The notes under the pieces: model-generated
What the model was told of the DNA's origin: nothing
Database searches by the model: none
What the model saw: only the letters and a program-made list of their open reading frames with translations
NCBI GenBank assembly: GCA_031551355.1
Contig: JAVBNT010000003.1
Span: forward strand, 1,520 to 65,519
Reading direction: 5' to 3'
DNA from: Candidatus Xenobia bacterium
Lineage (GTDB): Bacteria > Vulcanimicrobiota > CADAWZ01
Length of the DNA stretch: 64,000 bases
Program-made: the position numbers and the translations under genes
Shown here: positions 6,346 to 56,341 of the stretch, one piece after another
How positions within the stretch are numbered: position 1 is the stretch's first letter
Layout of the letters: every line of letters starts with the position of its first letter

Positions 6346-8526
6346 ATGAATTTTCTTTATTTTTTACGCCTGGAAATCAAACGCTGTTTTTTGTCACCGG
6401 CAACATGGGTGGTGGCGATGCTGACGATATGCGCCCCGCTGGCCGGATACTGGTTTTATAAAGCAGTTGTGTTCGCCAGCAGAGCCGGCACATATATCGC
6501 CAATCCTGTGATGGCCGGCAGTATCGGCGGTGTGATTTTATTTTCACTCCTGACATTGTATGAACTCAGCAGAATCCAAGAAAATAAAATTAACGCCATC
6601 ACCGACTCAATCGTTTCCCCATTCACGCTTAATGCCGTCAAAATCACCTCCCTGCTGACGGCGGCAACCGTTACCGGCATTTTGACAACGCTTGTTTACC
6701 TGCCATATACAATCTACAAAACAGATTATCTCTTCGATGCCGGCACTTATTTCGGCAGTTTTTTGATAATATTTCTTCCGGCGTTATGGATTGCATGTCT
6801 TTTTTCCGCAGTTTTTTATCAGATAACGGAGCGAACCGATTTAAGCTTTATACTGCTGGCCGCCTGCGCCGCTCCTTGTTTTGGGAAATTTATGGCCCCT
6901 GAATTTATTCTTAGATGGATAAACCCGATTACAATTTATTTCAACGATATTTTTTCCAATTCAAATGTATTGAGACTTGCGGCTTACAACAGAATCTTTT
7001 GGTTGCTACTATTAACAGGAACACTTTTGTTGTCTTTTCTATGCCTGCGCAGGTATGGCAAAGGACTTACAGACTCATTCATCATTAACATTCGATATTG
7101 GCGGATACCGCTCATATCATCGCTGTTATTAGCTTCCGGTCTCTGCATTTACATATTCCAGCCCTTTGTAAACCACTCCGGTTCAGACACAGAAGTCCGC
7201 AGGGCAAAAAATGAAGGCATCACAATTCTTTCAACTTACACATATGCCAAACCAAATCCAATTACCGGTATTCAATATGGAAAAACGACAATCAAACTGG
7301 CAAGAAAATCATCTGAGCCGCGAACATGCAAGTTCTCAATCGACTGCGGATATAAAGTAAGTTCTATTACCGCAGATGGCAAATCCATCTCCTTCGCCGA
7401 CCTGAACGATGATTACATTCTATGGAAACAAATTTCGCTGGCTCTTCCCAGGGGGAAGTTTACAGAACTGGTAATTACCTATAGCGGCTATCCGCAAATA
7501 TGGAAAAAATCAATGCCGAATATACTGGCAAATGAAATAAACAACCGGTTTATACAGCTTCCCGGCGGCTCTTTCAGCCCGATATTTAATGCCGATAAGG
7601 ACAAAAAAATTTCTCAGACAGCGGACATCGTGCTTCCCGGCCATATGATTCCGGTCACAACAACTGGTGATGTAAAGTTACTGCAAAGCAATAAAGACAG
7701 CACAAAAACATGGCATCTTGATTTCAAAAGCCATGACAGAATCAGGGTATATGCCGCCGATTATTTACATCAAAAAATTAATTCCCGGGGAATGTCGGTA
7801 GAATTTTATTACGGCCGCAGAAGTAAACCGGTTATGGACAAGTATCGCCTTGCAGAAACACTGAAAGAAGTTTTTGATTATTGCTCAAAACAATACGGCC
7901 CCATAGAATACACCAAAAACAATACGCTGATTTTATTGCAGGAGTCATCACTGGGAGGCGGAGCCGATAAAGGGATAAGTTTTTTCGGAGAGATAACATT
8001 TTCAGAAGACAGCCTAAAAGACCCTAAGCGCGGAGCTTCGGGAATGGAAGTTATGGCTCATGAAATCGCCCATCAGTGGTGGGGACTGGGGGTTGTATTT
8101 GAAGGAGCATACGGGGGCAGTAACAATTATGAGTGGACCTCTGAAGGATTCACAGTCTTTACTACTTACAGAATGATGAAGGAGAAATTTGGAGCCGATT
8201 ATGCAAAAAAATACTATATCGACGTGTGGAAAAAAGAATTAAAAAACAGAAACAGGGACTTCTACTACCGCCGGCCGGAATACTTAGATATATTGCCGGA
8301 ACGGTTTTCCTCAAAAATAAAATCTCAAAGCTGGGGTGTCGATGAATACTGCGTTATGCCGCTTAAAATTCTCAAAGCGGCGGAACTTATCGGCGGCGAA
8401 GACAAGATGGACGGGATAATGGCTAAACTTTATCAAATGAAGGCTAATCAGGAAGACTCCTTCCTGAGTTATGACGAATTTCTATCTGCATGCCACCTTA
8501 CGGATAAAGATCTTGAGTTGAAATAA
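6346..8526 (+). CDS. Second permease + M1-type metallopeptidase fusion (paralog of 3382-5574)
   Basis: The N-terminus MNFLYFLRLEIKRCFLSP is nearly identical to the paralog's. HEIAHQWWG...YEWTSEG zinc motif. Colinear similarity over the whole length. Confidence 0.8.
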   Translation: MNFLYFLRLEIKRCFLSPATWVVAMLTICAPLAGYWFYKAVVFASRAGTYIANPVMAGSIGGVILFSLLTLYELSRIQENKINAITDSIVSPFTLNAVKITSLLTAATVTGILTTLVYLPYTIYKTDYLFDAGTYFGSFLIIFLPALWIACLFSAVFYQITERTDLSFILLAACAAPCFGKFMAPEFILRWINPITIYFNDIFSNSNVLRLAAYNRIFWLLLLTGTLLLSFLCLRRYGKGLTDSFIINIRYWRIPLISSLLLASGLCIYIFQPFVNHSGSDTEVRRAKNEGITILSTYTYAKPNPITGIQYGKTTIKLARKSSEPRTCKFSIDCGYKVSSITADGKSISFADLNDDYILWKQISLALPRGKFTELVITYSGYPQIWKKSMPNILANEINNRFIQLPGGSFSPIFNADKDKKISQTADIVLPGHMIPVTTTGDVKLLQSNKDSTKTWHLDFKSHDRIRVYAADYLHQKINSRGMSVEFYYGRRSKPVMDKYRLAETLKEVFDYCSKQYGPIEYTKNNTLILLQESSLGGGADKGISFFGEITFSEDSLKDPKRGASGMEVMAHEIAHQWWGLGVVFEGAYGGSNNYEWTSEGFTVFTTYRMMKEKFGADYAKKYYIDVWKKELKNRNRDFYYRRPEYLDILPERFSSKIKSQSWGVDEYCVMPLKILKAAELIGGEDKMDGIMAKLYQMKANQEDSFLSYDEFLSACHLTDKDLELK

Positions 8527-8606: not shown

Positions 8607-8824
8607 ATTCTATTGATAAAAAATATGAGGCACTCAATTGCGTCTATAGGCTAAGGCAAGCCGGATTTTAACGAGTAAACTCTACTGTAATCAGAACCAT
8701 TCACCCCGGCCCTCTCCCGCAAGGGGAGAGGGAGAAAAGATAATGGTATAAATCTTTTCAACTCTATTGAAAAAATTAATTCAAAAAGATAGAAGTTCCG
8801 ATAAAATACATACATTATAAAGAT

Positions 8825-8951
8825 AAAATCAATTGAAACGGGCGGAGATGCTAAGTCAAAGACAAATTCTACGAGCGAGGCGTAGTCATCTCTACGGTAA
8901 GCGAGAGAATTTGTCTGCGACGACGCAGATTCGCCCGTTTCAATTGATTTT
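8825..8951. repeat. Family A long palindromic element (hairpin module)
   Basis: TCAATTGAAACGGGCG...GACAAATTCTACGAGCGAGGCGTAG // CTACGGTAAGCGAGAGAATTTGTC...CGCCCGTTTCAATTGA is a nearly perfect ~55-bp-arm inverted repeat. Copies at 10520-10646, 30236-30369 and 34349-35047. Confidence 0.85.
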
Positions 8952-10462: not shown

Positions 10463-10646
10463 GCGGAAACCACCCCGCCGCTCCGCGGCACCCCTCCAAA
10501 GGAGAGGAATTCATTAAAATCTTAATCAATTCAAACCGGCGGAGATGTTAAGTCAAAGACAAATTCTACGAGCTAGACGTAGTCTTATCTACGTCTAGCG
10601 AGAGAATTTGTCTGCAACGACGCAGCTTCGCCGGTTTCAATTGATT
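10463..10646. repeat. Family A element, complete unit (head + hairpin)
   Basis: Colinear with the units at 34708-35047 and with 8533-8606 plus 8825-8951. Confidence 0.85.
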
Positions 10647-14022: not shown

Positions 14023-14318
14023 TTTTACTCCTTATGCAATTCGACCTTTCTCTAAAATACGGACGACTCCAACTTATTGAATTATAAAAATATCAAAACA
14101 TGTAATCTTTTTATTTAGAGCAACTTGTAAAAATGTAGACAATACTTTACAAATATGCCGTGACCATTATCAAATTTATTACACCTACGGATATTGCCGG
14201 ATGGCTTTTACCTGATTGACATAGGCTATGTTAAATCAAGTTGATCTAAAAACTTATCTTTCAAATATTTCAAATCCTTTTAATATGACAAAAACAGCAG
14301 GAATCAACCGATAGTACT

Positions 14319-14708
14319 GAGGCACTCAATTGCGTCTATAGGCTAAGACAAATTAGATTTCAACGCGTGGACTCAATGTCATTAAGTTAGTGTTTTTCAT
14401 TGTCGATTCTGATATCTTTTGGATGTTAACGGAGTCCCTCACAGAGGGCACAGAGGCCACGGAGAATAAATACTAGTATAGCATAAATTAAATAACTGGA
14501 TAAATATTGATTTGAATTACAGAATGGACGAGATTAAAATTGAGGCCAATGAGAGTCCAGTTATTTAGTTAACTATATACTAGGTAAAACTCTCTGTGTT
14601 CTCATCTTCTCTGTAAGAAACCCTTTTCTCTTAACTTAATGCATTGAGCTGACTACGCCGGAATGAGGGAATATCTAATTTGACGACGCATATAGGCGCA
14701 ATTCAGTG
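14319..14708. mobile_element. Family B element carrying nested insertions (three levels)
   Basis: The B left half (14319-14371) and B right half (14649-14708) are separated by a 277-bp element with terminal inverted repeats CTCAATGTCATTAAGTTAG / CTTAACTTAATGCATTGAG (14372-14648). That insert itself contains another inverted-repeat element (ctagtatagcataaattaaataactgga ... tccagttatttagttaactatatactag). Confidence 0.75.
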
Positions 14709-14710
14709 TC

Positions 14711-16252
14711 TCATTCCACGAGGCAGAACTTATCATCTAACCCCAACTCACGGCCCATATCACCCATAAGCCATTCAAGAACAGTCTTGCAATGCGTGCA
14801 GAAAGCCAAATCAAGAGCAAACATATCACCCTGCTTGACAAACGCCTCATCAGCACAGCCGCCTCCGCAAATAGATAACCCGACACAGTCATAACATTCC
14901 GGCATTTGAAGTGGGGTTCTGCGGCACCAATCACTCGAAAGCTCGCTTTTAAGAATCTTTTGCTTTAAATCAGGTTCGTCAATATGTCCCCAGACAAAAC
15001 GTCCGTCATCTGCGGCGATATGGCAGGGGCCGACAAGACCGTCGGCACAGAGCGCAAACTGCCCTCCGTATCCTCCGCAATCATAAATCCATGGTGTTTC
15101 ATTTATAAAAGACTTAACTTTTCTCATTATACGGTCTTCGTAAATACCGCATTTGCGAAGAATTTTGTAAGCGTCGATAATTTTATGAGTCACTTCGTCC
15201 GCTGGGAGTTCGATACCGGAATCAGGCGGAAGTCCCTTCATTATATTAAATCCGAATCCTGTGCATTCAAGCTTAAAAACGAAATACTCAACAATGGATT
15301 CGATATCTTTATAATTATGCGGACCAAGCGTGCAGGAAATACCTACCCGGCCCAGCCTGTTTTTCAAAATAGCATAGCCCCTGAGCGCATCGTCAAACGA
15401 TCCGCTGCCGTCGGCATAAAGCCTGACGGCATTGTGATGGTGTTTCAGGCCGTCAATAGAAATTGAGCCGCCCATTCGCAAATCAAACAAATCTTTGGCA
15501 ATATCGTCAGTAATAAGGGTTCCGTTGCAGACCATGGAAACATCAACCGAAGAGTCTCCAAAAGCGCCTTCTTCTTCCACCTTACGGATATATTCAAGAG
15601 AATTTTTCATAACAGCCCAATTAAGCATCGGTTCTCCGCCGTAATATGTAATCAGCGGGTTCAACATGCGCTTGTTTACCATTGACGCAAAAAGATCTAT
15701 TCCCTTTTTTGCCGAATCCTCATCCATCATGCTGTAATTAAATCCCGACGGCTTACGGCATTCACTCTCTATAGTGCAATACTTACAGCGTAGGTTGCAG
15801 TTGTTGGTTATCAGCAAATACATAAGTCCGATAGTGGGATGGTTAAACGTTATTCTAGCTCTATATGAATCAAGTATAGAATCTTTGGTCTCGTTTTCGC
15901 CAACAAGAAACCCGCATTCAATCAAAGTAAAAAGATCTTTCCATGGATCACGTCCTTCCGTAGACGATGACAGAATGGTAAAATAGTCCTGAAGAGGATG
16001 CGGTTCTGCAGCCATTCGGTAAATTTTTTCAATTTCATTGCCGCCAAAAACTTTTTTTATATTAAGAGAATTATAAAGGGCGCAGTTATTTTTCGATTTA
16101 AAAAGGAACGCAAAAGGAGATCTTTTATAAATAGGCTTTAAGGTTGGAAATGAGCGCAAAACCGGCTCTCTGTAAAGCCAGGAATCAACTCCGGCAACAT
16201 CTTTTTGCATTTCGGGTGTAACAGGGGAAAAATGCTGCTCATATTTACTCAT
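14711..16252 (-). CDS. Radical SAM / SPASM-domain enzyme with ~140-aa N-terminal extension
   Basis: CNLRCKYC (CX3CX2C) preceded by IGLMYLLITNN. C-terminal Cys clusters CGGYGGQFALCADGLVGPC and CYDCVGLSICGGGCADEAF are typical of SPASM/twitch auxiliary clusters. ATGA overlap with the upstream gene. Confidence 0.85.
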   Translation of the reverse strand: MSKYEQHFSPVTPEMQKDVAGVDSWLYREPVLRSFPTLKPIYKRSPFAFLFKSKNNCALYNSLNIKKVFGGNEIEKIYRMAAEPHPLQDYFTILSSSTEGRDPWKDLFTLIECGFLVGENETKDSILDSYRARITFNHPTIGLMYLLITNNCNLRCKYCTIESECRKPSGFNYSMMDEDSAKKGIDLFASMVNKRMLNPLITYYGGEPMLNWAVMKNSLEYIRKVEEEGAFGDSSVDVSMVCNGTLITDDIAKDLFDLRMGGSISIDGLKHHHNAVRLYADGSGSFDDALRGYAILKNRLGRVGISCTLGPHNYKDIESIVEYFVFKLECTGFGFNIMKGLPPDSGIELPADEVTHKIIDAYKILRKCGIYEDRIMRKVKSFINETPWIYDCGGYGGQFALCADGLVGPCHIAADDGRFVWGHIDEPDLKQKILKSELSSDWCRRTPLQMPECYDCVGLSICGGGCADEAFVKQGDMFALDLAFCTHCKTVLEWLMGDMGRELGLDDKFCLVE

Positions 16253-29230: not shown

Positions 29231-29514
29231 GCTTTATCAAGATTTAGAGATAGAGGGGGCTACCTTGTTAAAAAACAGGATGCCCTCCTTTTTAAATTTC
29301 CGATAAAAGCTCCTCGCAGAGACAGGATTCACGCACGAGACACTTACTTTGCCTTTAACCAGCATTTTATAGCAATTCTACCTATCGTGTTCAAATTATG
29401 GAAAAACTGTTTTGTTTAGCATTTAAGAAATCCTATTATTTGAGAAAAACTATATAATTGTTATAATAATTCTCAGTGGTCTTACATACGACTCATCCCT
29501 ATATCGCAGACTGC

Positions 29515-29724
29515 TTTGGTTTGCTTGTTTTCTTGCTAAGACGCTCCGGAATTGACCTTAATCTCAGCAAATTCAAGAGACAAAATACGAACTCACTCCT
29601 ACGTTCACTTCGTTCAGCTCCGTAGTTTCGAACATGCATTTTGATGGAATCAGATCAGAATTTGCTGAGTTAAGGTGCCCAAATCCTCCCGCGAAAGGCA
29701 AGAAAACAAGCAAACCAAACCAAC
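29515..29724. mobile_element. MITE-like element, family E, second copy (inverted relative to 1212-1424)
   Basis: It is the reverse complement of 1212-1424 along its whole length, with scattered substitutions. The flanking DNA is also homologous to the flanks of copy 1. Confidence 0.75.
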
Positions 29725-30235
29725 AATTGCAAATATCAAATCAAATACTTTTAAGGATTCAGACATACAGCCATACAGCATATCTTGACAGTCCTAATTT
29801 CTTTATACATTTTGAAAAAAACTGTTATAAACAAGTTTTCTGGAAATACTATTCCAAAATCCAGTAAAAATAATATGTTATGGAATTTAACTTCCACAAT
29901 CACTGATTTAGAAAAGAGTTACTTTGCCATTCTCCGTCACTAACCGCCGACTCAGCACAATTATTTGCGATTAATCCTAATTTAATCCATAACAAAAAGC
30001 AGGCACTTATAGTAACCGGAAAAAATACGACATGATTCAATTTCTATAAATACTTAACATTAATGGACAAGTTGTCATCGCGAGTGCAGCGCGGCGATCC
30101 AGGGAGCAAAACTAAAACGATGATTATTTTTTCCGGTTACTATAAATCAATAAAGAACCTATGACAAACTGAAGTGTCCCTGTATAAAAGCGTATGGCTT
30201 TTTACAGGGACACTTCAAATTTTATAAAATGTCCA

Positions 30236-30369
30236 TTAAATCTAAATCAATTCAAACCGGCGGAGATGCTAAGACAAAGACAAATTCTACGAGCGAGTCG
30301 TAGTCCTTATCTACGTCGAGCGAGAGAATTTGTCTGCGGCGACGCAGATTCGCCGGTTTCAATTGATTT
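30236..30369. repeat. Family A palindromic element (hairpin module)
   Basis: AATCAATTCAAACCGGCGGAGATGCTAAGACAAAGACAAATTCTACGAGCGAG...GAGAGAATTTGTCTGCGGCGACGCAGATTCGCCGGTTTCAATTGATT. It touches the selD stop codon (30368-30370). Confidence 0.85.
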
Positions 30370-31432
30370 ACTGGCGGAGGGTTATTTTGCCGGGCTCCCT
30401 ATCCGTAATCCGCCCTATAATCACCGCACTTTCAACCCCCGACGACTTAAGCTTGGAGACTAAACCATCCGCCTGGGATTGCTCAACGAAAATCAAAAGC
30501 CCACCCGAGGTCTGAGGGTCAAAAAACAGCTGCAGACGTACGTCGTCAACCGTTTCGGCTCCGTACAAATGTCCGGAGTAAAAATCCCTGTTTCTATACA
30601 AACCGCCGGGTAATAAACCCATTGAAGCATAATCATAAGCCTTTTCCAAAAAAGGAACCGCCTGCGAATCAATAATGGCGCCCATTCCGGAACGCTGCAG
30701 GCATTCAAACAGATGACCGAGCAAACCAAAACCGGTGACATCGGTACAGGCTGTAACCGGGAACTGCTGCATAATCTCCGCCGCTGTTTTATTCAGAGTA
30801 ATCATACTTTCAACCATAGCCGCAAGCGATGATTCATCATACATAGAAGCTTTTACTGCCGTTGATATAATTCCTGTTCCCAAAGGTTTTGTCAGAATAA
30901 CGGCATCTCCGTTATTGACGCCCTTCTTTGTCAAAACTTTGTCAGGGTGTATCGTTCCGGTTACAGAAAGTCCGTATTTTATCTCATCATCCATAACCGA
31001 ATGGCCGCCGACAAGGAGACAGCCGGCTTTGTTCATTATATCAAGTCCTCCGGCGATAATGCTTTTTGCTACGGAATGCGGCATTTTGCCTGCCGGAAAA
31101 CAAAAAATGTTCATTGCCGTAAGAGGTTTGCCCCCCATCGCATACACATCACTAAGAGAGTTGGCAGCCGCTATCTGACCAAAAAGAAACGGATCATCCA
31201 CAAGCGGAGTAAAAAAATCAACCGTCTGAATGATGGCAATTTCATCGGTAAGCTTATAAACTGCCGCATCGTCCGGCTCTTCCATTCCAACCAAAAGGTT
31301 GGGATCTTTCATGAGTTGTAATCCACACAACACATTCGATAAGTCTGCAGGACCTATCTTGGATGCTCAACCGGCGGCTTTCACCAATGCCGTAAGCTTT
31401 ATTTCTTCAAATTCAGACAAATCTTTTTGCAT
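30368..31432 (-). CDS. selD: Selenide, water dikinase (selenophosphate synthetase) with in-frame UGA = selenocysteine at codon 22
   Basis: ATG at 31432 lies 7 nt after AGGAGG. The translation is MQKDLSEFEEIKLTALVKAAG-U-ASKIGPADLSNVLCGL..., which matches the SelD N-terminal G-(C/U)-x-x-K-I-x-P motif. The TGA is at 31367-31369. The track ORF (30368-31333) is the post-UGA remainder. AIR-synthase-like body with DVTGFGLLGH. Confidence 0.85.
31338..31358 (-). promoter_or_regulatory. SECIS-like hairpin downstream of the selD UGA
   Basis: The RNA GAUAGGUC-CUGCA-GACUUAUC has an 8-bp stem (one G-U pair) and a 5-nt loop. It starts 9 nt after the UGA. Confidence 0.55.
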
Positions 31433-31798: not shown

Positions 31799-32371
31799 TT
31801 AAAAATTGATGACATGAGCAGAATTTGCAACAACGCTGCAAATCTCAAACATATTCGACACAGTCCCGATTTTCAGCTCATCAATCAAGCCGAAATAGTC
31901 AAGACAGGTCCCGCAGACAAGCAGCTCTACCCCGGCACCTGAAAGCTCCGTAAGGGCATTAAGAAATTCCGAGCCGCTGCATGCCAGCTTGACTCCGCCG
32001 TTCAAAAAAACAACCGCAGAAACCGAACCATGCAGCTGAGGCAACGTCTTGAGATACGCATGCATTAAAACACGGCCCAACACCTCATCGCCCCTGCCTA
32101 TTGTTTCCGCAGAAATAACGGCAGTAATCGGCGCAGACGGCTGCAGTGATGAAGAAGCGGCCGAATCACCTTTAACAGCAAACCTAACATAACCTGATTC
32201 ATCCAGACTGTCAAATTCTCTTGAAACCGATTTAAGAAAACGGCTCACATTACCGCATGAAACCGGAGAATCCAGCAAAATATCAAATGTTTTTCCGGGA
32301 TTGGCATCCAAAAACTTTTTTACCCTTATCAAAGGTTCAGGACAATCAAGTCCCCTTACATCAATCTTCAT
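31799..32371 (-). CDS. yedF: Selenium metabolism protein YedF (TusA/SirA-like + DsrE-like domains)
   Basis: MKIDVRGLDCPEPLIRVKKFL (the CPxP motif of the TusA family) followed by a DsrE-like half with CGTCLDYF. ATG 32371 follows GGAGG. Confidence 0.75.
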   Translation of the reverse strand: MKIDVRGLDCPEPLIRVKKFLDANPGKTFDILLDSPVSCGNVSRFLKSVSREFDSLDESGYVRFAVKGDSAASSSLQPSAPITAVISAETIGRGDEVLGRVLMHAYLKTLPQLHGSVSAVVFLNGGVKLACSGSEFLNALTELSGAGVELLVCGTCLDYFGLIDELKIGTVSNMFEICSVVANSAHVINF

Positions 32372-33398
32372 CGCGTCCTCCAAGCTCACCGGAATCACGC
32401 AAAAAAGCAACAAAGGAAGCAACTATATCAGGTGCAAACTGGCTGCCGGCATTTTTTATAAGCTCCTCAACCGCCACTGCCGGTGAAAAAGCCTTTCGGT
32501 ATGGCCTGTCAGACGTCATCGCATCAAAAGAATCGGTAACAGTCACTATTCTTGCGGAAAGAGGAATCTCTCTTTCTTTAATGCCGTCAGGATAGCCGCC
32601 GCCGTCCCACCGTTCATGATGGTGTCTTACCGTAGGCAGAACATGAGCCATACTTTTTATCGGCCGCAAAAGTGCCTCACCGATAACAGGGTGCTGTTTC
32701 ATAATTTCAAACTCAATATCGGTTAGTCTGTCCGGTTTATTGATAATCTCCTCAGGAATATTTATTTTTCCTATATCATGAAATTCACCGGCATCCCTGA
32801 ACGCCTGAAGCTGACCTCTCATAAGAGAGTAAACGATCTCTTTTTCATCATCGTCGGCAAGCGAAAATGTTATCGCCGCCTGTCCAAGTTCCTTAAATTT
32901 TGCTCCGTCGGCAACCTCTTTCATAATCTCGGAATCATTGCCCAACCGCTCTGCGAGTGCGGCTGACAGATCCGTGACCCGGCAACTGTGCTGATAAGTA
33001 AACTGGGTTTCAAGCTTCATCAAAAGTTCAAACAAGTAAAGTTTTTCGCTCTCATCGGTTTCACCGAATTCATCACTCAGTTTTTTCAAAAGAGAATAAA
33101 CCGAGCTTACGGCATTTCTTACCGCCGACTCCAAAGCTTTAACAAAAACGGCAGAGGCGTCGGCAGAGGGAGACATCGACATAAGCTTGGAGGCAAAATT
33201 TCTGTCGGCAACCATTTTGTAAAAATCGCTTACGGACAATTTATCATATGATGAAACACTGACGCTGTCCTGTACATTCCGCTGCGCGGCAGGAGTCTCT
33301 TTAGGCAAAGACGTATGTGTTGCCGAGGGAAATTTAAGACCCTCAACTTTATGAGATTGCGAAAAAGAGCCGATGGGCTCCGGAGGAGTTATATTCAT
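32361..33398 (-). CDS. HD-GYP domain protein (probable cyclic-di-GMP phosphodiesterase)
   Basis: HDIGKINIP...HHERWDGGGYPDG...DSFDAMTSDRPYRKA. Confidence 0.85.
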   Translation of the reverse strand: MNITPPEPIGSFSQSHKVEGLKFPSATHTSLPKETPAAQRNVQDSVSVSSYDKLSVSDFYKMVADRNFASKLMSMSPSADASAVFVKALESAVRNAVSSVYSLLKKLSDEFGETDESEKLYLFELLMKLETQFTYQHSCRVTDLSAALAERLGNDSEIMKEVADGAKFKELGQAAITFSLADDDEKEIVYSLMRGQLQAFRDAGEFHDIGKINIPEEIINKPDRLTDIEFEIMKQHPVIGEALLRPIKSMAHVLPTVRHHHERWDGGGYPDGIKEREIPLSARIVTVTDSFDAMTSDRPYRKAFSPAVAVEELIKNAGSQFAPDIVASFVAFLRDSGELGGRDED

Positions 33399-34348: not shown

Positions 34349-35047
34349 GCGGAAAACCACCCCGCCGCTCCGCGGCATCCCTCCAAAGGAGGGGAATTTA
34401 TTAAAATTCAAATCAATTCAAACAAGCAAAGATGCTAAGCAAAGGCAATTTCGACGAGCGAGACGTAGTCTTATCTCAATGTCATTAAGTTAAGAGAAAC
34501 CATCTTTTAGGCTATACGTAAGCAATTAGCTTTACCGTCATTGCGAGCCTGTAAGGCGTGGCAATCCAGGCATTTATTTTTCTGGATTGCTTCGTCGGTA
34601 GCCTCCTCGCAATGACAAACATGGCAAAACCGGCAATTTAAAATCTTAACTTAATAACATTGAGTCTTACTCTACGGTAAGCGAGAGAATTTGTCTGCGA
34701 CTACACAGAAACCACCCTGCTGCTCCGCGGCACCCCTCCAAAGAAGGGGAATTCATTAAAGTCTAAATCAATTCAAACAGGCGGAGATGCCAAGGCAAAG
34801 GCAATTTCGACGAGCGAGACGTAGTCGTACTTCTACGTTGAGCGAGAGAAATTGTCTGCGACTACACAAGCCCCCTGCTGCTCCGCGGCACCCCTCCAAA
34901 GAAGGGGAATTCATTAAAATCTAAATCAATTCAAACAGGCGGAGAGGCTAAGACAAAGACAATTTCGACGAGCGAGGCGTAGTCTTATCTACGTTGAGCG
35001 AGCGAAATTGTCTGCGACGACGCAGATCTGCCGGTTTCAATTGATTT
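34349..35047. repeat. Tandem array of three family A units (~165 bp each) between buk and ptb; the first unit carries a nested insertion
   Basis: The units start near 34349, 34708 and 34870. Each is a head module plus hairpin module. The array fills the whole buk-ptb intergenic space. Confidence 0.85.
34475..34664. mobile_element. Family C MITE (TIR CTCAATGTCATTAAGTTAAG / CTTAACTTAATAACATTGAG) inserted in the loop of a family A hairpin, flanked by a TCTTA duplication
   Basis: An uninterrupted loop reads GTAGTCTTATCTACG. Here it reads GTAGTCTTAT[190 bp]TCTTACTCTACG. The insert itself contains the family D hairpin at 34537-34616. Confidence 0.8.
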
Positions 35048-40165: not shown

Positions 40166-40284
40166 ATTAGCATTACCGCCCGCAGGCTAAGGCAAATCGG
40201 ATTGCAGACGAGCGGAGCGTAGTCTTTTCTACGTGAAGCGAGCAAATATCCGCTTTGACGACGCATGCGCTAGCAATTCACTGC
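40166..40284. repeat. Family B palindromic element
   Basis: ...CGCAGGCTAAGGCAAATCGGATTGCAGACGAGCGGAGCGTAGTC-tttt-CTACGTGAAGCGAGCAAATATCCGCTTTGACGACGCATGCGCTAGCAATTCACTG. Confidence 0.7.
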
Positions 40285-40336
40285 ATCTGGAAATTGGGGA
40301 TTGACATTGAACCATGATCCTGATAAACTATTTCGT

Positions 40337-48970: not shown

Positions 48971-48999
48971 TTGCCCCGGTAACGGAAATCATTTATAAT
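48971..48999 (+). promoter_or_regulatory. Sigma70-type promoter TTGCCC-17 nt-TATAAT
   Basis: A perfect -10 at 48994-48999 with 17-nt spacing, 50 nt upstream of ATG 49050. Confidence 0.6.
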
Positions 49000-49049
49000 T
49001 AAATAGAATTGCCTACGGCAATAATATAATACAAGGAGACGGGTCTTTC

Positions 49050-49550
49050 ATGAAAAAATATCTGCTATTGACACTCATAATGGCTATGTTTTTAGCTGTT
49101 ATGGCAACTCCCGGATACTGTGGCTGACGTCCTATAAGCGTCCCCCTGAGTTCAGGGGCAAAAAAACCTGTTGTTTCCACTTATAACGGAAACGAAGTTA
49201 GAAAAATGGTTGAGCAGACAACGGACAAAGATGAAACTCTAAAAGTTTACTACACGCTTCTAAACAACAAACAGATTGATGTTATATATGACAATCTGCT
49301 TTCTTCAAAAATGAAAAAAGAGGTAAAAAGAGCGGATTTCAGACAGCAGCAGTCTAGCGGCAAAAACTACACTTTAGAGCAAATCTGCGACAGTGAGAAT
49401 TCAAAACCATCGGGAACAGAAATTACCGCCAAAGGAACATACAAACTGTCCGGCAAACAAAAGGAACAGAACAGAAGTTTCGAACAAAAATTTACATTGG
49501 TAAAAGACGGTAAATACTGGAAAATACAATCAATAGAAGAAATTAAATAA
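49050..49550 (+). CDS. Candidate selenoprotein: signal peptide-Cys-Gly-[UGA]-linker-NTF2/DUF4878-like domain
   Basis: AAGGAGA SD, ATG 49050, MKKYLLLTLIMAMFLAVMATPGYCG, TGA at 49125-49127, then an uninterrupted frame into the track ORF 49206-49550 (offset 156 nt = 52 codons). A hairpin follows the TGA. Confidence 0.55.
49143..49158 (+). promoter_or_regulatory. SECIS-like hairpin CCCCUGA-GU-UCAGGGG
   Basis: A perfect palindrome starting 15 nt after the TGA. The apical G-U is at positions 26-27 counted from the U of UGA. Confidence 0.45.
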
Positions 49551-49555
49551 GCCCG

Positions 49556-49589
49556 AAGCCTCTGCGGTTAAACCATAAGAGGCTTTTTT
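49556..49589 (+). terminator. Rho-independent terminator
   Basis: AAGCCTCT-gcggttaaaccata-AGAGGCTTTTTTATT. Confidence 0.75.
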
Positions 49590-49608
49590 ATTATAAAGGT
49601 AAAATTTC

Positions 49609-49638
49609 TTGACGGAGATAGCAAAAATAGCATACAAT
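49609..49638 (+). promoter_or_regulatory. Sigma70-type promoter TTGACG-18 nt-TACAAT
   Basis: It lies 28 nt upstream of ATG 49666. Confidence 0.55.
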
Positions 49639-49665
49639 ATAGTTGTATCTCCATAGAAAGGAAGT

Positions 49666-50220
49666 ATGTCGGTGAAAAAATATCTTATACTGGTGCTGAG
49701 CATTCTGTTTACCGTTATATTTATAAACTTGCCGGCTTGTGCCGGTTGAGGCGCGCCAAGTTCTCCTGGTCCAGGAGAGATACTGAGAGAACAGGCGGAT
49801 AAGTTTTCACAGACGCCTAAGGCACTTATGGAAACTTATTACAGTCTCATCAGCCGTCAAAGAAGTTATACCGTTCACCAATATTTACTCTCCGAACGGG
49901 CAAAAAATCAAATAAAAGCAAAGAACTTTGTAAAACAATCGAAAAACAAAAAATACACAATCGAAAGCATTGATATCGACGAGTTTGAAAAACAGGCGCT
50001 GGTAACCGTAAAGCTAAAATGTACAACTCATTACGGTATTTTTGATAACCTGAGATACACATTCCTAATCGGTGCGATAATGAAGACACTGCAAAAATAC
50101 AGTGACAAATCAGTTCCCGGAGAGTATAAACAAAGCTTTACACTGATAAAAATGCCCAACGGGTCCTGGAGAGTCAGTGAAGTTGGAGTAATCGGTAAAA
50201 CCAGTCTGGCAGAAAAGTAA
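49666..50220 (+). CDS. Candidate selenoprotein, paralog: signal peptide-Cys-Ala-Gly-[UGA]-linker-NTF2/DUF4878-like domain
   Basis: AAGGAAG SD, ATG 49666, MSVKKYLILVLSILFTVIFINLPACAG, TGA at 49747-49749, then an uninterrupted frame into the track ORF 49828-50220 (offset 162 nt = 54 codons). A hairpin follows the TGA. Confidence 0.55.
49762..49778 (+). promoter_or_regulatory. SECIS-like hairpin UCUCCUGG-U-CCAGGAGA
   Basis: A perfect palindrome starting 12 nt after the TGA. The apical G and U fall at positions 23 and 24 from the U of UGA. Confidence 0.5.
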
Positions 50221-50252
50221 TATAAAAAAATTACATAAATTTAAAACAAATA

Positions 50253-50289
50253 AAAAATCAGCTTCCAAACGAAACTGATTTTTTATTTT
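50253..50289 (+). terminator. Rho-independent terminator
   Basis: AAAAATCAG-cttccaaacgaaa-CTGATTTTTTATTTT. Confidence 0.75.
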
Positions 50290-50332
50290 GCGAATTATTT
50301 TCTTTTAGCTATGGAGTTTTTCCGGAACGGCA

Positions 50333-51781
50333 TTATTTATTTTTAACTACAGCAACTTTATCGGTATTATCATTACATATACAGATCTTGGTATTGAGAA
50401 TATAATCAGCCGATGTTACCTGAAGAGTATGGTTTCCGGCGGCGATCCTGCCGTCGGAAGTTGTCCAGCAACCGTTGCTGTATGTAAGCGGATAATCATC
50501 AAAACCGAGAGTATCGGCGAGATCTTCCTGAAGAACAATCCTGGCGGTTATGCCGGAGGTAATCTCCTCGTAAGTGCCGTCAATATTCCTGGGTTTGTAT
50601 ATCTTAAGTTTCAACGGCAGCTGTTTGCGGGCAAAACTGACTGTATCAATCGGGAACCGGGCCTCAATCGGGTCAAACACCGGAACGGCAACAGTTCTTT
50701 CTTCATCCGAAAAATCGGGGATGGAAAAAGTATATGTTCCCGCAGCAAGGCCGCGGAATTCCATCCAGGCTCTGCTGGTGCCTACCGATAAAAGTTTGTT
50801 TTCAGCGATGATACTCCCGTTCTGCTTTATAACATAGGACTCGTCTACAAGTTCTATACAGTCATACTCAGTTCTCAGATATTGAAAATCAGTATAAGAC
50901 CTGACATAAATATCCATCGGAGAAGTCATATCGGATGTAAAGTTGAGTTTATAAGGCAAACAGGAGTTGGGCGTACCCCAGAATAAATATACGGTGTTGA
51001 TGCCGGCGGACAGTTTGGGGAACGTAAAGCTCTTGATGTTTGCGGTGCCCTGACCTCCCATCACCTGTCCCATCCAAACCCCGTTCAAACTTACGTAGTC
51101 CTTATAGAAAACCGGATCTGTCGTTCCCTCCTCATAGAAACGGATTACAAAATTATTCTTTTCAATTCTTACGAGACTGACGACAACGGAATCTGTATTT
51201 TCGTCAACAACAAAGGAGGCGGTTTCATCGGAATAGCCGGGAATAGAAAGCGTATAGCTGCCAACCGGCAGTTTCTGGGTATAATATTCGTTTCTGCCGG
51301 CAACCCAGGTAATGTCTCCCTTAGCCTGTTTGCCGTTATAAGTCAGATGAACCGTCGATTCCGTATACGGCTGGTTATCCTGATCGACAACGGCGAGACG
51401 GACCTGCTTTTCGACAATGCCCTTGGTCAGGATAATATTTTCAGACTTATCGGCATCGGAAATAGCGATATCCTGATCGAAAACATCATAACCGGTCATC
51501 GTAGCATGAATGTGATATATCCCCTGAGGCAGGTTTCTGAACTCGTAAAATCCGTTGGCATCGGCCTGGACTACCATATTTACCGGTCCGGTCAATTCTA
51601 TTGTCGCCCCGGGAATAACTGCTCCCGTGACATCCATAACGGTTACCGAAAAAGCATGCGTCACCGGAGCCGGTGCCGGACCGACGGGTCCGAAAGAAGT
51701 ATTGCAATTCTGACTTCCGCACCCGTAAAGCAAAAAAACAACCATCAACGCAAACATGTTTAAAGACAGTTTTTTGATCAT
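50333..51781 (-). CDS. Large lipoprotein with carboxypeptidase-regulatory-like (Ig-like beta-sandwich) repeats
   Basis: Lipobox LLYGC after ATG 51781. GATIELTGPVNMVVQADANGFYEFRNLPQGIYHIHATMTGYD is a typical CarboxypepD_reg module. Paralog of 54693-56177. Confidence 0.65.
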   Translation of the reverse strand: MIKKLSLNMFALMVVFLLYGCGSQNCNTSFGPVGPAPAPVTHAFSVTVMDVTGAVIPGATIELTGPVNMVVQADANGFYEFRNLPQGIYHIHATMTGYDVFDQDIAISDADKSENIILTKGIVEKQVRLAVVDQDNQPYTESTVHLTYNGKQAKGDITWVAGRNEYYTQKLPVGSYTLSIPGYSDETASFVVDENTDSVVVSLVRIEKNNFVIRFYEEGTTDPVFYKDYVSLNGVWMGQVMGGQGTANIKSFTFPKLSAGINTVYLFWGTPNSCLPYKLNFTSDMTSPMDIYVRSYTDFQYLRTEYDCIELVDESYVIKQNGSIIAENKLLSVGTSRAWMEFRGLAAGTYTFSIPDFSDEERTVAVPVFDPIEARFPIDTVSFARKQLPLKLKIYKPRNIDGTYEEITSGITARIVLQEDLADTLGFDDYPLTYSNGCWTTSDGRIAAGNHTLQVTSADYILNTKICICNDNTDKVAVVKNK

Positions 51782-51885
51782 ACTATTCCCCTTAATTTTA
51801 ATTTTGTTTATTGCGTTAAAAATTACCAAATAAAATATACTATCGAAAAATAACATAAAAAATTACGAAAAAAAATTATGAAGAG

Positions 51886-53130
51886 TTAAATAACAACCTC
51901 CTTTATTTTATCGGATGGAGCTCCGCATACATGGCACATTTTAGGGTGTTCGCCGCCATGGAAAGTAAGTCCGCAGGACGTACATGTATAAAATCTGTCA
52001 CAAAATATATCCTTTTTGCCTGCAAGCTCATTATAAGCTTTTTCAAGCAAACCTAAATGTATCCTCTCGGCCTCCCGGGCATCGTTAAAAGCATAGGCGG
52101 CAATTCCGGCATGTTCTTTTTTTGCCTGTTCCAGATAAGAAGCATACGTATTATCAACTTCATTGCGCTCACTGAAAATACTGTCGGCAATCCTTTCCCT
52201 TGGTTCCTTAAACCTGTTCATTGCAAAATAATAATTTCTGGCGTGATAAAACTCCGAATCGGCTATAGCTAAAAACAGCTTCGCCGTATTCGGCATATTG
52301 CGCCTCTGCGCATCTTCCGCATACAGACGGTATTTGACATGGGCAATACATTCTTCCTTAAAAGAATCAAACAGGCTTTCATTTATCTGCTGCTTATGGG
52401 CAAATTCATTTTCCACAAAACAAAGAGTCTTTATCCTGTATGACAATCCCGAATCACCGTAGTAAAATTCAACAACATGGTGGTAAGGCGAAGAGATACC
52501 GTCCACGGGCTCTATCCTGGCACCGCCGCCGCCGGTACAGATAAGTTTGATCCCATCCAAATCATCTTCAAAATAGGAATGAACATGTCCTGATAAAAAA
52601 TACCGGATATTCTTTTTGTAAGGTTCAATAACTTCAGTGATTTTAGCCCACTCCTTCTCGGTGACGGAATTCCCGGCAACAGTGTTGGGCGGAGGAATGT
52701 GAAAGGCGATAACAATATTCTCACGCGAATAATTGTTCAAAGCCTCACGCAATACGTTCAAAGTTTCTTCCGAAAAGCTTCTTTTCGAATTATCAAGCAC
52801 AACAATCAAAAGCCGGTCGTCGCAAATAAAATAATTTTTCCGTCCGAAATAATCCTCATAGGAGTGTGTGTCATGATTGCCGCAAAGCATATAAACCGGT
52901 CGGCGGCATATGGAGTCCATAAGTTCAGCCGTTTTCCCATAAAAAACAGGCGAACCTATGGGAACAATGTCTCCGGCAACAAGCAAAAAATCAGTATCCG
53001 AGTTGTTTAGCGCCAGATTAAAAACAGACATAATCTCTGCTCCCAGGCCATCGCAGCCGGGGTCTCCCACAAAAGCAAATGTATTTATACGGTCAAGAAT
53101 GTTGACAGCCTTTTCAATTTTTTTTATCAT
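51886..53130 (-). CDS. Fusion protein: calcineurin-like metallophosphoesterase + rubrerythrin-like diiron four-helix bundle + rubredoxin-like Cys4 tail
   Basis: MPE motifs: GDPGCDG, VAGDIV, CGNHD, FHIPP, SGHVHSY. ExxH pairs: ADSEFYH and EAERIH. C-terminal CTSCG...CHVCGAP. Confidence 0.7.
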   Translation of the reverse strand: MIKKIEKAVNILDRINTFAFVGDPGCDGLGAEIMSVFNLALNNSDTDFLLVAGDIVPIGSPVFYGKTAELMDSICRRPVYMLCGNHDTHSYEDYFGRKNYFICDDRLLIVVLDNSKRSFSEETLNVLREALNNYSRENIVIAFHIPPPNTVAGNSVTEKEWAKITEVIEPYKKNIRYFLSGHVHSYFEDDLDGIKLICTGGGGARIEPVDGISSPYHHVVEFYYGDSGLSYRIKTLCFVENEFAHKQQINESLFDSFKEECIAHVKYRLYAEDAQRRNMPNTAKLFLAIADSEFYHARNYYFAMNRFKEPRERIADSIFSERNEVDNTYASYLEQAKKEHAGIAAYAFNDAREAERIHLGLLEKAYNELAGKKDIFCDRFYTCTSCGLTFHGGEHPKMCHVCGAPSDKIKEVVI

Positions 53131-53299: not shown

Positions 53300-54180
53300 T
53301 CAGGCTGCCGCTTGCTCCTTTTGCAAACGACCAAAGGATGATAAATAAGCCTGATAAGGGCGTTTATTGCCAAGACTCTGGTGAGGGCGTTCATAGTTAT
53401 ACTCGTTGATATATTTATCTATGCCGCGCCGGAGTTCACGAGGACTTGTATATTCGTTTAGATAAATGTCCTCAGACTTAAGGCTCCTAAACCACCGCTC
53501 TATAATTACGTTATCAATCCAACGCGCTTTGCCGTCCATACTTTGCCTGATTCCGTAAGATTTTAAAAGTTCAATACACTCATTGCCTGTAAACTGGCTT
53601 CCCTGATCTGAATTGATTATATCAGGTATGCCATAAGTTTCGATTGCTTGCTTCACGGCTCCAAGAATCGGCACGGTTTCCAGTGTGTCAGACAATGCCC
53701 AACCTACTACAAATCGAGTTGCCCAGTCAATTATAGCTGTTAAATACATATGAGAATGTCTCATATGTATATATGTTATATCAATAGCCCATACTTGATT
53801 AGGCAGCCAAATAAGCTTTTTTCTCAATAGATAAGGGAATTTTTTATGCTCTTTATCTGCCTTGAAAGATTTGGCTTCGGATATAATGCATAAACTCCCA
53901 TTTCCTGCATATATCGGCGAATCAGTTTTCGTCCAATATTGGTAAAACCGTCATCTTGTTTAAGTTTATCCAGAAGTTTACGGGAACCCATCCAACAATA
54001 CTTTGTATGCCAATAATCTAGTCGCCCTTTGATATATTCTTCACAAAATATTTGGTATTCATTTGGCGTTATTGGTTCATAATAACAGCTTGTACAGTTA
54101 ACTTCCAAAAGCTCGCATTGGCGCTTTAAAGACAGTTGTTCATTTTTTGAAACTAACTTTATTATCCCATTCGGTGCCAA
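53300..54180 (-). pseudogene. IS3-family transposase OrfB (DDE), split into two frames
   Basis: 53824-54180 encodes ...MGVYALYPKPNLS. The canonical continuation KADKEHKKFPYLLRKKLIWLPNQVWAIDITYI is in another frame (53300-53827 plus about 40 nt upstream). DDE residues: DITYI, NSDQGSQF, ERWFRSLKSE. The middle piece is +1 relative to orfA and the last piece is in the orfA frame, which is not the canonical single -1 arrangement. Confidence 0.7.
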
Positions 54181-54478
54181 ACAACTTTTTATGCGCCCCT
54201 TTTAAAAAATCTACCTCCAGCGTCAATTGACCTACTTTTGCCTGATATTTCCTTTCCATTTCTTCCAGTTCTTTTATTCTTTTTTCGGCTTCTTTTTCCA
54301 GGCTATTCTGGGCGAAAACTCTTTCGGCATTTTCCAGAAAATCACGTCGCCAGTTGCCGAGTTGATTTACGCTTATCTTTTCTCTAAAAGCTATTTCTCC
54401 AATCGTGCTTTCTTCTTTTAATATTTCAAGCACAATCTTAGCTTTGTATTCGGGCGAATATTCTCTTCTTTTTTTCAT
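54140..54478 (-). CDS. IS3-family transposase OrfA (HTH)
   Basis: MKKRREYSPEYKAKIVLEILKEESTIGEIAFREKISVNQLGNWRRDFLE plus a leucine-zipper-like C-terminus. Confidence 0.8.
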   Translation of the reverse strand: MKKRREYSPEYKAKIVLEILKEESTIGEIAFREKISVNQLGNWRRDFLENAERVFAQNSLEKEAEKRIKELEEMERKYQAKVGQLTLEVDFLKGAHKKLFGTEWDNKVSFKK

Positions 54479-54692: not shown

Positions 54693-56177
54693 TTATCTGC
54701 TGAAAACGAACACATTCTCGGAGTCGGGCGATACAAACATTGTGAAAGTTGACGTCCCGTCGCTTAAAATATACAGTCCGCTGTCCATAGCTCCGTTAGC
54801 AGCCCAATTTTTAGTGCCTGCATCGTATGTCAGCACATAAGTAGAGCCTTGTACCATTGATGGCTTTAGAGCGGCAATTCTTATGGCATAAAAAATCTGA
54901 ATCTGAGAGAGTGAACCGTCATTGGCAAAAATCTGAGCCCGGAAATCAGCGTTCTGACTTCTGGAGAATTCAAGCTGGGCAGTTCCCTTTTCATAACCGT
55001 TAATATTTTGTCCGGAGACGGTGATTGGAAGCTCCTGGGTAGAAACGGAAGGAACCGAAACCAAATAGTTGCCGTTGGGAAGGCTAAAGTATATATAACC
55101 GTCGTCATAGGAAAGAGGTTCGGCAACGACATCGCCCGTACTGCTGTCCTTTATAACCGCCTGAGCGAATAATACCGGCAAAGATGCGGAATCCGTAATC
55201 CGGACCCTGTGATGGTAAGTCAGCGTAGCGGCGAGCTGAACATTAGGATTAGAGGTTGTAATATCAAGATCATACTTGAAATATTTGTTGGGATAGAGTT
55301 CATAATCATTATAGTGGAAGAAAGAATATCTTCCCGCAGGGACATTCGTATAGGTAACGACTCCGCCTACCGGCTTCAGCTGTTTTGAATAGAATGACGG
55401 ACCGACAATAGAGCCATAGCTGAGAAGACCGAACCAATGATTAAGGTCATCACCGCTCAAACCGTTAAGGGTTACGGTTACGGAAGGTATTATTGCTCTT
55501 GCAAACTGATAAACGCCTTTTGAAGAAGAAGAAACGGTAACCGGTTTCGAATCCGTTGAATATCCGGGGATTGTCAGCAGATAGTTTCCATCGGGAACAG
55601 CATCAATAACAACTGTTTTGCCGGTAATTTCAGCAGAAATCGGATTAACACCGCCGGAAAGCGACAGCCTGGCCCCTAAAAAAGCGCTGTTACACTGATC
55701 AACAATTGAAAGCTCAACTCTGCTGTAATTAATAAGAACAATTTCTTCCACTACCGCAGGCTCATCATAGGTCACGGCAACATTCGTGGAGAAAACAACA
55801 TTATCATTGACGATAGCGGATAGTGAATAGCTTCCAAGGGGAACATCTTCAAATGAATAATACCCGTCGGCATCTGAAAAAGTGGAGGCAAAAACAGAGC
55901 TGTTAAGGCTCCTTGCCTTTGCACCGTATTCTAGTTCAACAAGAGCATCGGCGATGGGCTCACCATCAGCATACACAACTCTGCCGCTTACCGTGTTGGA
56001 ATCGGCTACCGGCTGGGTTGTTACAACCGGATCCGAACCGGAAGACGGTGACGGCTGAACATATGGATTGCCCGAAACAGAAAAAGAACCTGATCCGGAG
56101 CCGGAACTGCAGCCGGTGATAAAAAGCATTACCGCGAACACAAAACACATTAAAAACAAGATAGTTATTTTTTTCAT
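54693..56177 (-). CDS. Large lipoprotein with carboxypeptidase-regulatory-like repeats (paralog of 50333-51781)
   Basis: ATG 56177 follows GGAGGGAA. Lipobox FITGC. GRVVYADGEPIADALVELEYG...SDADGYYSFEDVPLGSYSLSA module. Confidence 0.65.
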   Translation of the reverse strand: MKKITILFLMCFVFAVMLFITGCSSGSGSGSFSVSGNPYVQPSPSSGSDPVVTTQPVADSNTVSGRVVYADGEPIADALVELEYGAKARSLNSSVFASTFSDADGYYSFEDVPLGSYSLSAIVNDNVVFSTNVAVTYDEPAVVEEIVLINYSRVELSIVDQCNSAFLGARLSLSGGVNPISAEITGKTVVIDAVPDGNYLLTIPGYSTDSKPVTVSSSSKGVYQFARAIIPSVTVTLNGLSGDDLNHWFGLLSYGSIVGPSFYSKQLKPVGGVVTYTNVPAGRYSFFHYNDYELYPNKYFKYDLDITTSNPNVQLAATLTYHHRVRITDSASLPVLFAQAVIKDSSTGDVVAEPLSYDDGYIYFSLPNGNYLVSVPSVSTQELPITVSGQNINGYEKGTAQLEFSRSQNADFRAQIFANDGSLSQIQIFYAIRIAALKPSMVQGSTYVLTYDAGTKNWAANGAMDSGLYILSDGTSTFTMFVSPDSENVFVFSR

Positions 56178-56341
56178 AAATTCCCTCCAAATATTTTTTA
56201 TTCCAATTTTTAGCTTCAAAAATTTTAGCACTAAGGCGATTATAGTATATTGTTAACAAAAAAGCAATACTTTTTTAACATTTTTGTAAAATATTTTTAA
56301 CATTGTTTACATTTTGTTAACAAATATTAAAAAATAATAAC

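Follow-up and report, generated by a model that had tools for sequence, protein, structure and literature searches.

Two adjacent paralogous genes, here called gene 1 and gene 2, lie on the forward strand of contig JAVBNT010000003.1 from a Candidatus Xenobia bacterium (GCA_031551355.1), within a 64-kb stretch that was analysed as a whole and is referred to as the window. Each gene carries an in-frame UGA directly after its signal-peptide sequence. A first-pass annotation of the stretch had proposed both as candidates for a new family of selenoproteins, and selenocysteine (Sec) insertion at the two codons is also the explanation that we consider probable.

Direct reading of both frames confirmed the previously reported TGA positions and the uninterrupted continuation behind them. 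Gene 1 starts with ATG 49050, encodes MKKYLLLTLIMAMFLAVMATPGYCG and reaches TGA 49125-49127; behind this codon the frame stays open up to the TAA at 49548-49550 and crosses the annotated ATG 49206 (offset 156 nt). Read from ATG 49666, gene 2 encodes a peptide with the end ...INLPACAG, followed by TGA 49747-49749, and its frame then runs through the annotated ATG 49828 (offset 162 nt) to the stop at 50220. In both genes 26 stop-free codons separate the TGA from the annotated ATG, and no in-frame ATG, GTG or TTG is found in this interval in either of them. Gene callers report only the ATG-started parts downstream of the UGA (P0001 and P0002).

The start assigned to gene 1 in the first-pass annotation was retained. 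For gene 2 the analysis favours GTG 49672 over the ATG 49666 chosen earlier, because the Shine-Dalgarno sequence AAGGAAG is placed 7 nt upstream of the GTG as against 1 nt upstream of the ATG. Translated from GTG 49672, the protein would begin with MKKYLILV..., comparable to MKKYLLLT... in gene 1 and MKKNFIIL... in the homologous protein P0003. With this start, both paralogs have the UGA as codon 26 and share the conserved residues P21, G25 and U26. The two proteins share 27% identity, yet they can be aligned from Met1 through the UGA into the following domain, which argues that the arrangement is older than an ancient duplication and has been kept since. The annotated ATG codons had been described as lacking a convincing Shine-Dalgarno sequence; this needs correction for ATG 49828, which does carry a weak AAGG 5 nt upstream. 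The promoter-like sites attributed to each gene were found where they had been placed and are the top two of the region, each with 10 of 12 consensus matches, while the total of such sites in the region is no greater than in shuffled sequence. Since each gene has its own intrinsic terminator, genes 1 and 2 form two monocistronic units.

Table 1. Coordinates of the features of genes 1 and 2 and of the selenium-related genes in the window.
Feature	Position	Strand	Remarks
Gene 1 promoter-like site	48971..48999	+	TTGCCC-17-TATAAT; 10/12 consensus matches, consensus match only
Gene 1 Shine-Dalgarno sequence	49033..49038	+	AAGGAG; 11 nt ahead of the ATG
Gene 1 read-through open reading frame	49050..49550	+	166 codons; candidate Sec at codon 26
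Gene 1 signal peptide	49050..49124	+	MKKYLLLTLIMAMFLAVMATPGYCG; n-, h- and c-region layout; aligns with signal peptides of gene 2 and P0003
Gene 1 in-frame UGA	49125..49127	+	candidate Sec codon 26
Gene 1 linker and predicted NTF2-like domain	49128..49547	+	linker of about 20 residues, disordered; helix 1 from near 49188
Gene 1 SECIS-like hairpin	49143..49158	+	CCCCUG-AGUU-CAGGGG; 6-bp stem; UGA-to-loop 21 nt
Gene 1 intrinsic terminator	49555..49592	+	-15.1 kcal/mol, then U-run
Gene 2 promoter-like site	49609..49638	+	TTGACG-18-TACAAT; 10/12 consensus matches
Gene 2 Shine-Dalgarno sequence	49658..49664	+	AAGGAAG; 7 nt to GTG 49672, 1 nt to ATG 49666
Gene 2 read-through open reading frame	49666..50220	+	likely start GTG 49672
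Gene 2 in-frame UGA	49747..49749	+	candidate Sec codon
Gene 2 linker and predicted NTF2-like domain	49750..50217	+	inserted low-confidence loop; pLDDT 62; gene 1 topology
Gene 2 SECIS-like hairpin	49761..49779	+	UUCUCCUG-GUC-CAGGAGAG; 8 pairs including one G-U; UGA-to-loop 19 nt
Terminator past gene 2	50248..50288	both	bidirectional
selD (selenophosphate synthetase)	30368..31432	-	TIGR00476, 389 bits; in-frame UGA 31369-31367, codon 22
yedF, selenium-metabolism sulfurtransferase-like gene adjoining selD	31799..32422	-	TIGR03527, 175 bits

Homologs were searched with each read-through protein and a three-sequence profile in a word-indexed collection of 5.8 billion proteins, and exhaustively with HMMER among 1.84 billion representatives. 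These searches revealed a family of three proteins, the two truncated proteins of the window and P0003 (216 aa; from the metagenomes JGI 3300027904 and ENA ERZ27257344). P0003 is 48-50% identical to gene 1 and has an uninterrupted layout of signal peptide, long Q/N/T-rich linker and domain; as its domain stands behind a contiguous signal peptide, the domain of this family is taken to be exported. The tblastn similarity between P0003 and gene 1 begins at 49167, i.e. 39 nt (13 codons) upstream of ATG 49206, with PVVSTYNGNEVRKM aligned with PVLSEYSGNKIQKM. The conserved codons upstream of 49206 could therefore be translated only by a ribosome that has passed the UGA.

A scan of genome contigs with the family profile found no relative, and a scan of metagenome contigs detected the P0003 contig only. 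The neighbourhood of P0003 (L002) contains neither a paralog nor a TGA-split gene. For the flanking DUF2252 protein the genome-contig scan gave a single match, a 43%-identical locus in a Blastocatellia metagenome-assembled genome. Comparison with curated families showed no NCBIfam match at E <= 1 for either read-through protein or P0003, and sub-threshold matches only in Pfam. A 2026 review of prokaryotic selenoproteomes catalogues 119 selenoprotein families (PMC13188914); none of them is an NTF2-like entry or is described as having Sec directly after a signal peptide. The earlier remark that no described selenoprotein family of this architecture came to notice is borne out by both NCBIfam and the catalogue.

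The AlphaFold2 model of gene 1 (predicted local distance difference test (pLDDT) 77; predicted template modelling score (pTM) 0.71) showed disorder in the first 18-20 residues after the UGA. Helix 1 comprises residues 21-32 after the UGA in this model and spans the annotated Met (residue 27), whereas helix 1 of the gene 2 model (residues 8-19) lies entirely upstream of the annotated Met. The predicted domain is an alpha+beta cone in which 4-5 helices precede a curved sheet of 4 strands. Foldseek comparison with the PDB returned NTF2-like domains only (E about 7e-4, template modelling (TM) score about 0.5), among them the N-terminal domain of PBP2a, the intermembrane-space domain of ARC6, the NTF2 domain of RsgI9, NTF2 itself and VirB8-like domains. 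The Pfam match to NTF2 (E 0.024, 15.5 bits) is below the cutoff of 21; judged from the models, an NTF2-like fold is likely. The models and structural matches support the previous description of exported proteins with an NTF2-like domain. Its suggested likeness to DUF4878 found no such support, as there was no DUF4878 match in Pfam at E <= 1. The predicted cone and the extracytoplasmic site are shared with the NTF2-like domains of PBP2a (1mws/5m18), ARC6 (5d9r), RsgI9 (7sjy) and VirB8-like proteins, but identity to such extracytoplasmic NTF2-like domains is 12-17% and none of these domains is a selenoprotein.

The ends of the two signal peptides were compared with the lipobox pattern [LVI][ASTVI][GAS]C. 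Gene 1 has P-G-Y-C, with Tyr at -1 and no lipobox, and gene 2 has L-P-A-C, which is borderline with Pro at -2; other lipoproteins of the window have the canonical boxes ISGC, LYGC, ITGC and QTAC. Possible lipidation, which the first-pass annotation had considered, is therefore unsupported. By the -3/-1 rule, possible cleavage sites for signal peptidase I would be AVMA|T or GYC|G (gene 1) and ACA|G (gene 2). The Cys might then be lost along with the signal peptide, leaving a mature protein that would begin with G-U. The Cys residues are unaligned between the paralogs (residue 24 versus 23), and G25-U26 are aligned. The originally proposed C-x(1-2)-U redox motif would be present at the N-terminus of the mature protein if the Cys is retained.

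The UGA codons of both genes are followed, after 11-15 nt, by a hairpin resembling a selenocysteine insertion sequence (SECIS). Its energy is -10.0 to -10.7 kcal/mol in gene 1 (z = -2.9, local fold) and -9.1 to -9.9 kcal/mol in gene 2 (z = -2.7). Counted from the U of the UGA, the apical G-U occupies nt 26/27 in gene 1 and nt 23/24 in gene 2, in agreement with the first-pass annotation. The loops of 2 nt and 1 nt drawn there are physically impossible; the actual loops are AGUU and GUC. In the SECIS of Escherichia coli fdhF the apical G23/U24 are counted in the same way from the UGA. The bacterial SECIS (bSECIS) model asks for a loop of 3-9 nt, a stem of 4-16 bp, an energy <= -7.5 kcal/mol, a UGA-to-loop distance of 16-37 nt and a G at loop position 1 or 2, the next base usually being G or U (PMC13188914). 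Both hairpins satisfy all of these constraints, also with their less favourable energies of -10.0 (gene 1) and -9.1 kcal/mol (gene 2). Among the 2335 TGA trinucleotides of the window, 2.5% pass the same constraints, and the sites of gene 1 and gene 2 rank in the top 0.56% and 1.1%, respectively; the joint chance of both hairpins passing is about 6e-4 or less. Of these 2335 TGAs, 1.07% are followed at that distance by a perfect stem with 6 or more bp, 4 or more of them G-C. The best hairpin anywhere in the gene of the UGA-less homolog P0003 is no stronger than -6.3 kcal/mol. Both hairpins fall in the part of the gene that codes for the disordered linker, where, if the models are right, structure constrains the protein sequence least.

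A role of the hairpins as transcription terminators or attenuators was rejected, because no U-run comes after either of them and both genes have proper terminators of their own further downstream. The stems of the two hairpins are one register apart relative to the codon alignment, which precludes a claim of compensatory covariation, and covariation was not used as evidence. Weak Rfam matches (SSRC41, miRNAs) were dismissed as chance or terminator hairpins. Further stable hairpins are located just upstream of the UGAs, within the signal-peptide coding sequence, at 49075-49104 (-12.2 kcal/mol) and 49731-49746 (-10.9 kcal/mol); the last base of the latter, GCCGGCUUGUGCCGGU in gene 2, directly adjoins the UGA.

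The window also encodes a selenophosphate synthetase, and the in-frame UGA previously noted in this selD gene was found at 31369-31367, at the catalytic position (...VKAAG-U-ASKIGP). This implies that the host decodes Sec and possesses the machinery for it. The selD UGA is followed by a hairpin at 31358-31338 (reverse strand) with the stem GAUAGGUC/GACUUAUC (8 pairs) and the loop CUGCA at nt 20-24 from the UGA. The pentanucleotide GGUCC is common to the 5' arm of the selD hairpin and the apex of the gene 2 hairpin. TGA terminates 12 of the 49 ordinary genes in the window, well-conserved ones included, which agrees with the earlier statement that it is otherwise a stop here; a reassigned genetic code with TGA as a sense codon was rejected for this reason.

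Coding statistics were determined for the segments on both sides of the UGA. In a codon-frame test the signal-peptide, linker and domain segments of both genes were all coding-like in the read-through frame. The two linkers scored +4.0 and +5.6, the median of in-frame chunks from real genes being +6.4. Of intergenic 26-codon chunks, 21% are stop-free and 3.4% match the codon-frame score of the two linkers. Scanning the window with TGA as sense revealed three convincing genes with an internal TGA only, namely gene 1, gene 2 and selD. The base after the UGA (+4) did not separate these UGAs from true stop codons.

We consider it probable that both UGAs are recoded as Sec and that genes 1 and 2 are the first members of a selenoprotein family that is new and very rare. 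This reading is built on the continuous frame, the conservation flanking the UGA, the hairpins that fit the SECIS model, the Sec trait implied for the host and the predicted fold of the product. A continuous conserved frame is, however, equally consistent with any mechanism of read-through. A near-cognate tRNA (Trp, Cys) might decode the UGA at low efficiency, or the UGA might act as a programmed brake on expression, and the hairpins would then merely slow the ribosome; a selD hairpin unlike those of genes 1 and 2 and the lack of a Cys homolog fit such a scheme. It would leave aside that Sec decoding by this host follows from the UGA in its selD, that the hairpins match bacterial SECIS elements in geometry and loop G-U, and that the adjoining Cys yields the CxU and CxxU patterns recurrent in catalogued selenoproteins. 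Near-cognate decoding in bacteria is normally efficient to a few percent, which would be odd for two proteins, and we regard read-through of this kind as unlikely. Just as unlikely, in our view, is that each locus makes two products, a hydrophobic leader or micro-peptide of 25 residues and a signal-less NTF2-like protein starting at 49206 or 49828, with the shared frame and the hairpins being coincidental or related to regulation or reinitiation. Gene callers read the locus in this way, TGA is a normal stop in the host, NTF2-like proteins are commonly cytoplasmic and the weak AAGG precedes ATG 49828. Against this, the similarity to P0003 reaches 13 codons upstream of 49206, where no usable start exists, the annotated starts interrupt the predicted helix 1, and P0003 indicates export of the domain by means of a contiguous signal peptide; both linkers are in frame, free of stops and similar to coding sequence, and the layout has been kept between paralogs of 27% identity.

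A processing of the Sec-containing proteins to which we assign a very low probability would place signal-peptide cleavage at the Sec or immediately ahead of it (...C-G|U, ...A-G|U or ...|G-U), so that the mature protein starts with Sec or Gly-Sec. The conserved element would then be G25-U26 and not the Cys. In its extreme form, an x-x-G-U 'seleno-lipobox' would hold Sec in place of the lipid-modified Cys, by comparison with the host's own x-x-G-C lipoboxes. This would give either a lipoprotein with a selenoether link at its N-terminus or a tether of 20 residues that carries a free N-terminal selenol. The least probable explanation is that the genes are pseudogenes decaying through nonsense mutation, or that the TGAs are sequence or assembly errors. 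The IS3-family element and the many repeats resembling miniature inverted-repeat transposable elements (MITEs) nearby indicate a fluid genome, and so tiny a family may be dispensable. It would, however, take two independent TGA mutations at codon 26, each with a SECIS-type hairpin, which is very improbable; in each gene the other 140-156 codons are undamaged and score like coding sequence, and a separately assembled contig of SRR23967707 is identical over 49089-50245, although both assemblies may share reads.

Several results weigh against Sec insertion in genes 1 and 2. No homolog with Cys in place of Sec was found in either protein collection or in the scans of genome and metagenome DNA, and the classical Sec/Cys pairing is thus lacking in the family as its sequences stand. 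After its signal peptide P0003 contains no Cys and no Sec, and its linker cannot be aligned. The first-pass annotation had named as refuting evidence the absence of Cys- or Sec-aligned homologs and homologs that consistently start at the downstream Met; P0003 agrees in part with the former, but its similarity begins upstream of the annotated ATG. The alignment of UGA with UGA rests on two paralogs of one genome. The bSECIS criteria are permissive, and the gene 2 hairpin, when folded in its full 60-nt context, competes with other structures and is not the one of minimum free energy. Rfam gave no match to a SECIS or any other credible RNA family in the whole window at gathering thresholds or in 49000-50300 at E <= 10. 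The one certain SECIS of the host, that of selD, has no G at either of its loop's first two positions, unlike the hairpins of genes 1 and 2. Finally, selA, selB and a gene for tRNA-Sec (selC) were not found in the 64-kb window; for tRNA-Sec, both ARAGORN and Rfam were negative, including the 1.1 kb free of open reading frames beside selD.

If the UGAs are decoded as Sec, the mechanism would be the known bacterial one with SelB and a SECIS. The ribosome would translate the signal peptide up to the UGA, and with this codon in the A site the G-C-rich hairpin with its apical G-U would still be folded just outside the ribosome. The hairpin would tether SelB-GTP-Sec-tRNA(Sec), so that Sec is inserted in place of termination, and translation would proceed via the disordered linker of about 20 residues, which also encodes the hairpin, into the NTF2-like alpha+beta domain. 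After export by the general secretory (Sec) pathway and cleavage of the signal peptide, Sec would be found on a flexible tether, at the N-terminus of the mature protein or no more than a few residues away from it. A retained Cys would be its neighbour, in the arrangement C-G-U (gene 1) or C-A-G-U (gene 2). With low confidence, we suggest that the proteins might present a selenenylsulfide redox tip, or a tip binding soft metals or chalcogens, together with a binding scaffold.

Genes 1 and 2 resemble genes decoded by SelB and SECIS, such as fdhF and the selD of the window, in having an in-frame UGA within a conserved open reading frame. They also share with fdhF a stem-loop inside the coding sequence just past the UGA, with the apical G-U at nt 23/24 to 26/27. 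In contrast to these genes, their Sec would be at codon 26 after a signal peptide, in a disordered tether and not in a folded active site, and Cys-containing homologs are absent; their hairpins are minimal, with 6-8 bp and no bulged U, and differ from the selD hairpin. Exported selenoproteins, including DsbA-like proteins, are already known, and CxU and CxxU motifs are common among selenoproteins (PMC13188914); Table 1 of that review lists such motifs for the UshA-like NF041198, rhodanese form 3, SelW-like and AhpD-like families. The Cys-Sec spacing of genes 1 and 2 corresponds to these motifs, but the folds are unrelated, and whereas those families show a conserved motif that aligns with Cys forms, the Cys in genes 1 and 2 is unaligned and possibly cleaved off. 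SaoB, SaoX and SaoC of the SAO system are exported or lipoprotein selenoproteins with CU motifs, which are thought to bind metals or organometallics and are split or truncated at the TGA by gene callers (Haft & Gwadz, bioRxiv 10.1101/2022.07.06.499078). Like these, the products of genes 1 and 2 would be extracytoplasmic proteins with a signal peptide and a Sec near Cys, and they are likewise mis-split. In SAO proteins, however, Sec is found in the pocket of a substrate-binding protein or at the extreme C-terminus instead of an N-terminal tether, and they have many Cys homologs and a conserved neighbourhood of nine genes, whereas genes 1 and 2 have no conserved neighbourhood and no NCBIfam match.

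Beyond these genes, the window contains a number of repeats. MITE-like or repetitive extragenic palindrome (REP)-like intergenic repeats of ~130-180 nt were found at 8771-8949, 10468-10646, 30238-30368 and 34354-35046 (three adjacent copies), with partial copies at 40193-40286, 14318-14374 and 14671-14711. Their terminal inverted repeats are AAATCAATTGAAAC...GTTTCAATTGATTT, a G-C-rich hairpin (CCCCTCC...GGAGGGG) lies inside, and one copy abuts the 3' end of selD. The 1.1 kb between a cysK-like PALP gene and selD (29231-30367) has no open reading frame of at least 100 aa and no Rfam family; it includes copies of repeats and, at 30167-30222, a strong hairpin that resembles a terminator. An intergenic inverted repeat pair of ~210 nt (1211-1422/29515-29725; 93-96% complementary, 28 kb apart) and an intergenic direct repeat pair of 138 nt (21111-21248/34476-34613; 98% identical) may be remnants of mobile elements. 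The IS3-family element at 53300-54478 (reverse strand) comprises HTH_Tnp_1, HTH_21 and rve reading frames, is apparently frameshifted, and is flanked by paralogous lipoproteins of ~510 aa with CarboxypepD_reg domains (50333-51856 and 54693-56231). A tandem pair at 3382-5574 and 6346-8526 encodes membrane proteins of ~730 aa with a weak Peptidase_M1 domain, each after ABC-type genes, with a blockwise DNA identity of 71-85%. The gene at 51886-53130 (reverse strand) encodes an unusual fusion of a calcineurin-like metallophosphoesterase, a rubrerythrin domain and a C-terminal rubredoxin-like domain.

Since the recoding would follow the textbook mechanism and new families are regularly reported (119 catalogued in 2026), the gain would be incremental unless the chemistry of an N-terminal Sec is special. 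If confirmed, genes 1 and 2 would represent a selenoprotein family beyond the reach of standard pipelines, because it has no Cys homologs and three public members, and gene callers leave behind a discarded 25-residue reading frame and a truncated 'hypothetical protein'. The site of the Sec would be unusual, at the start of a mature secreted protein and in a disordered tether before a non-thioredoxin, NTF2-like scaffold, with the SECIS written into the only stretch of the protein on which no structural constraint acts. Confirmation would bear on the de novo origin of Sec sites and on extracytoplasmic selenols in redox and metal handling at the cell envelope of anaerobes.

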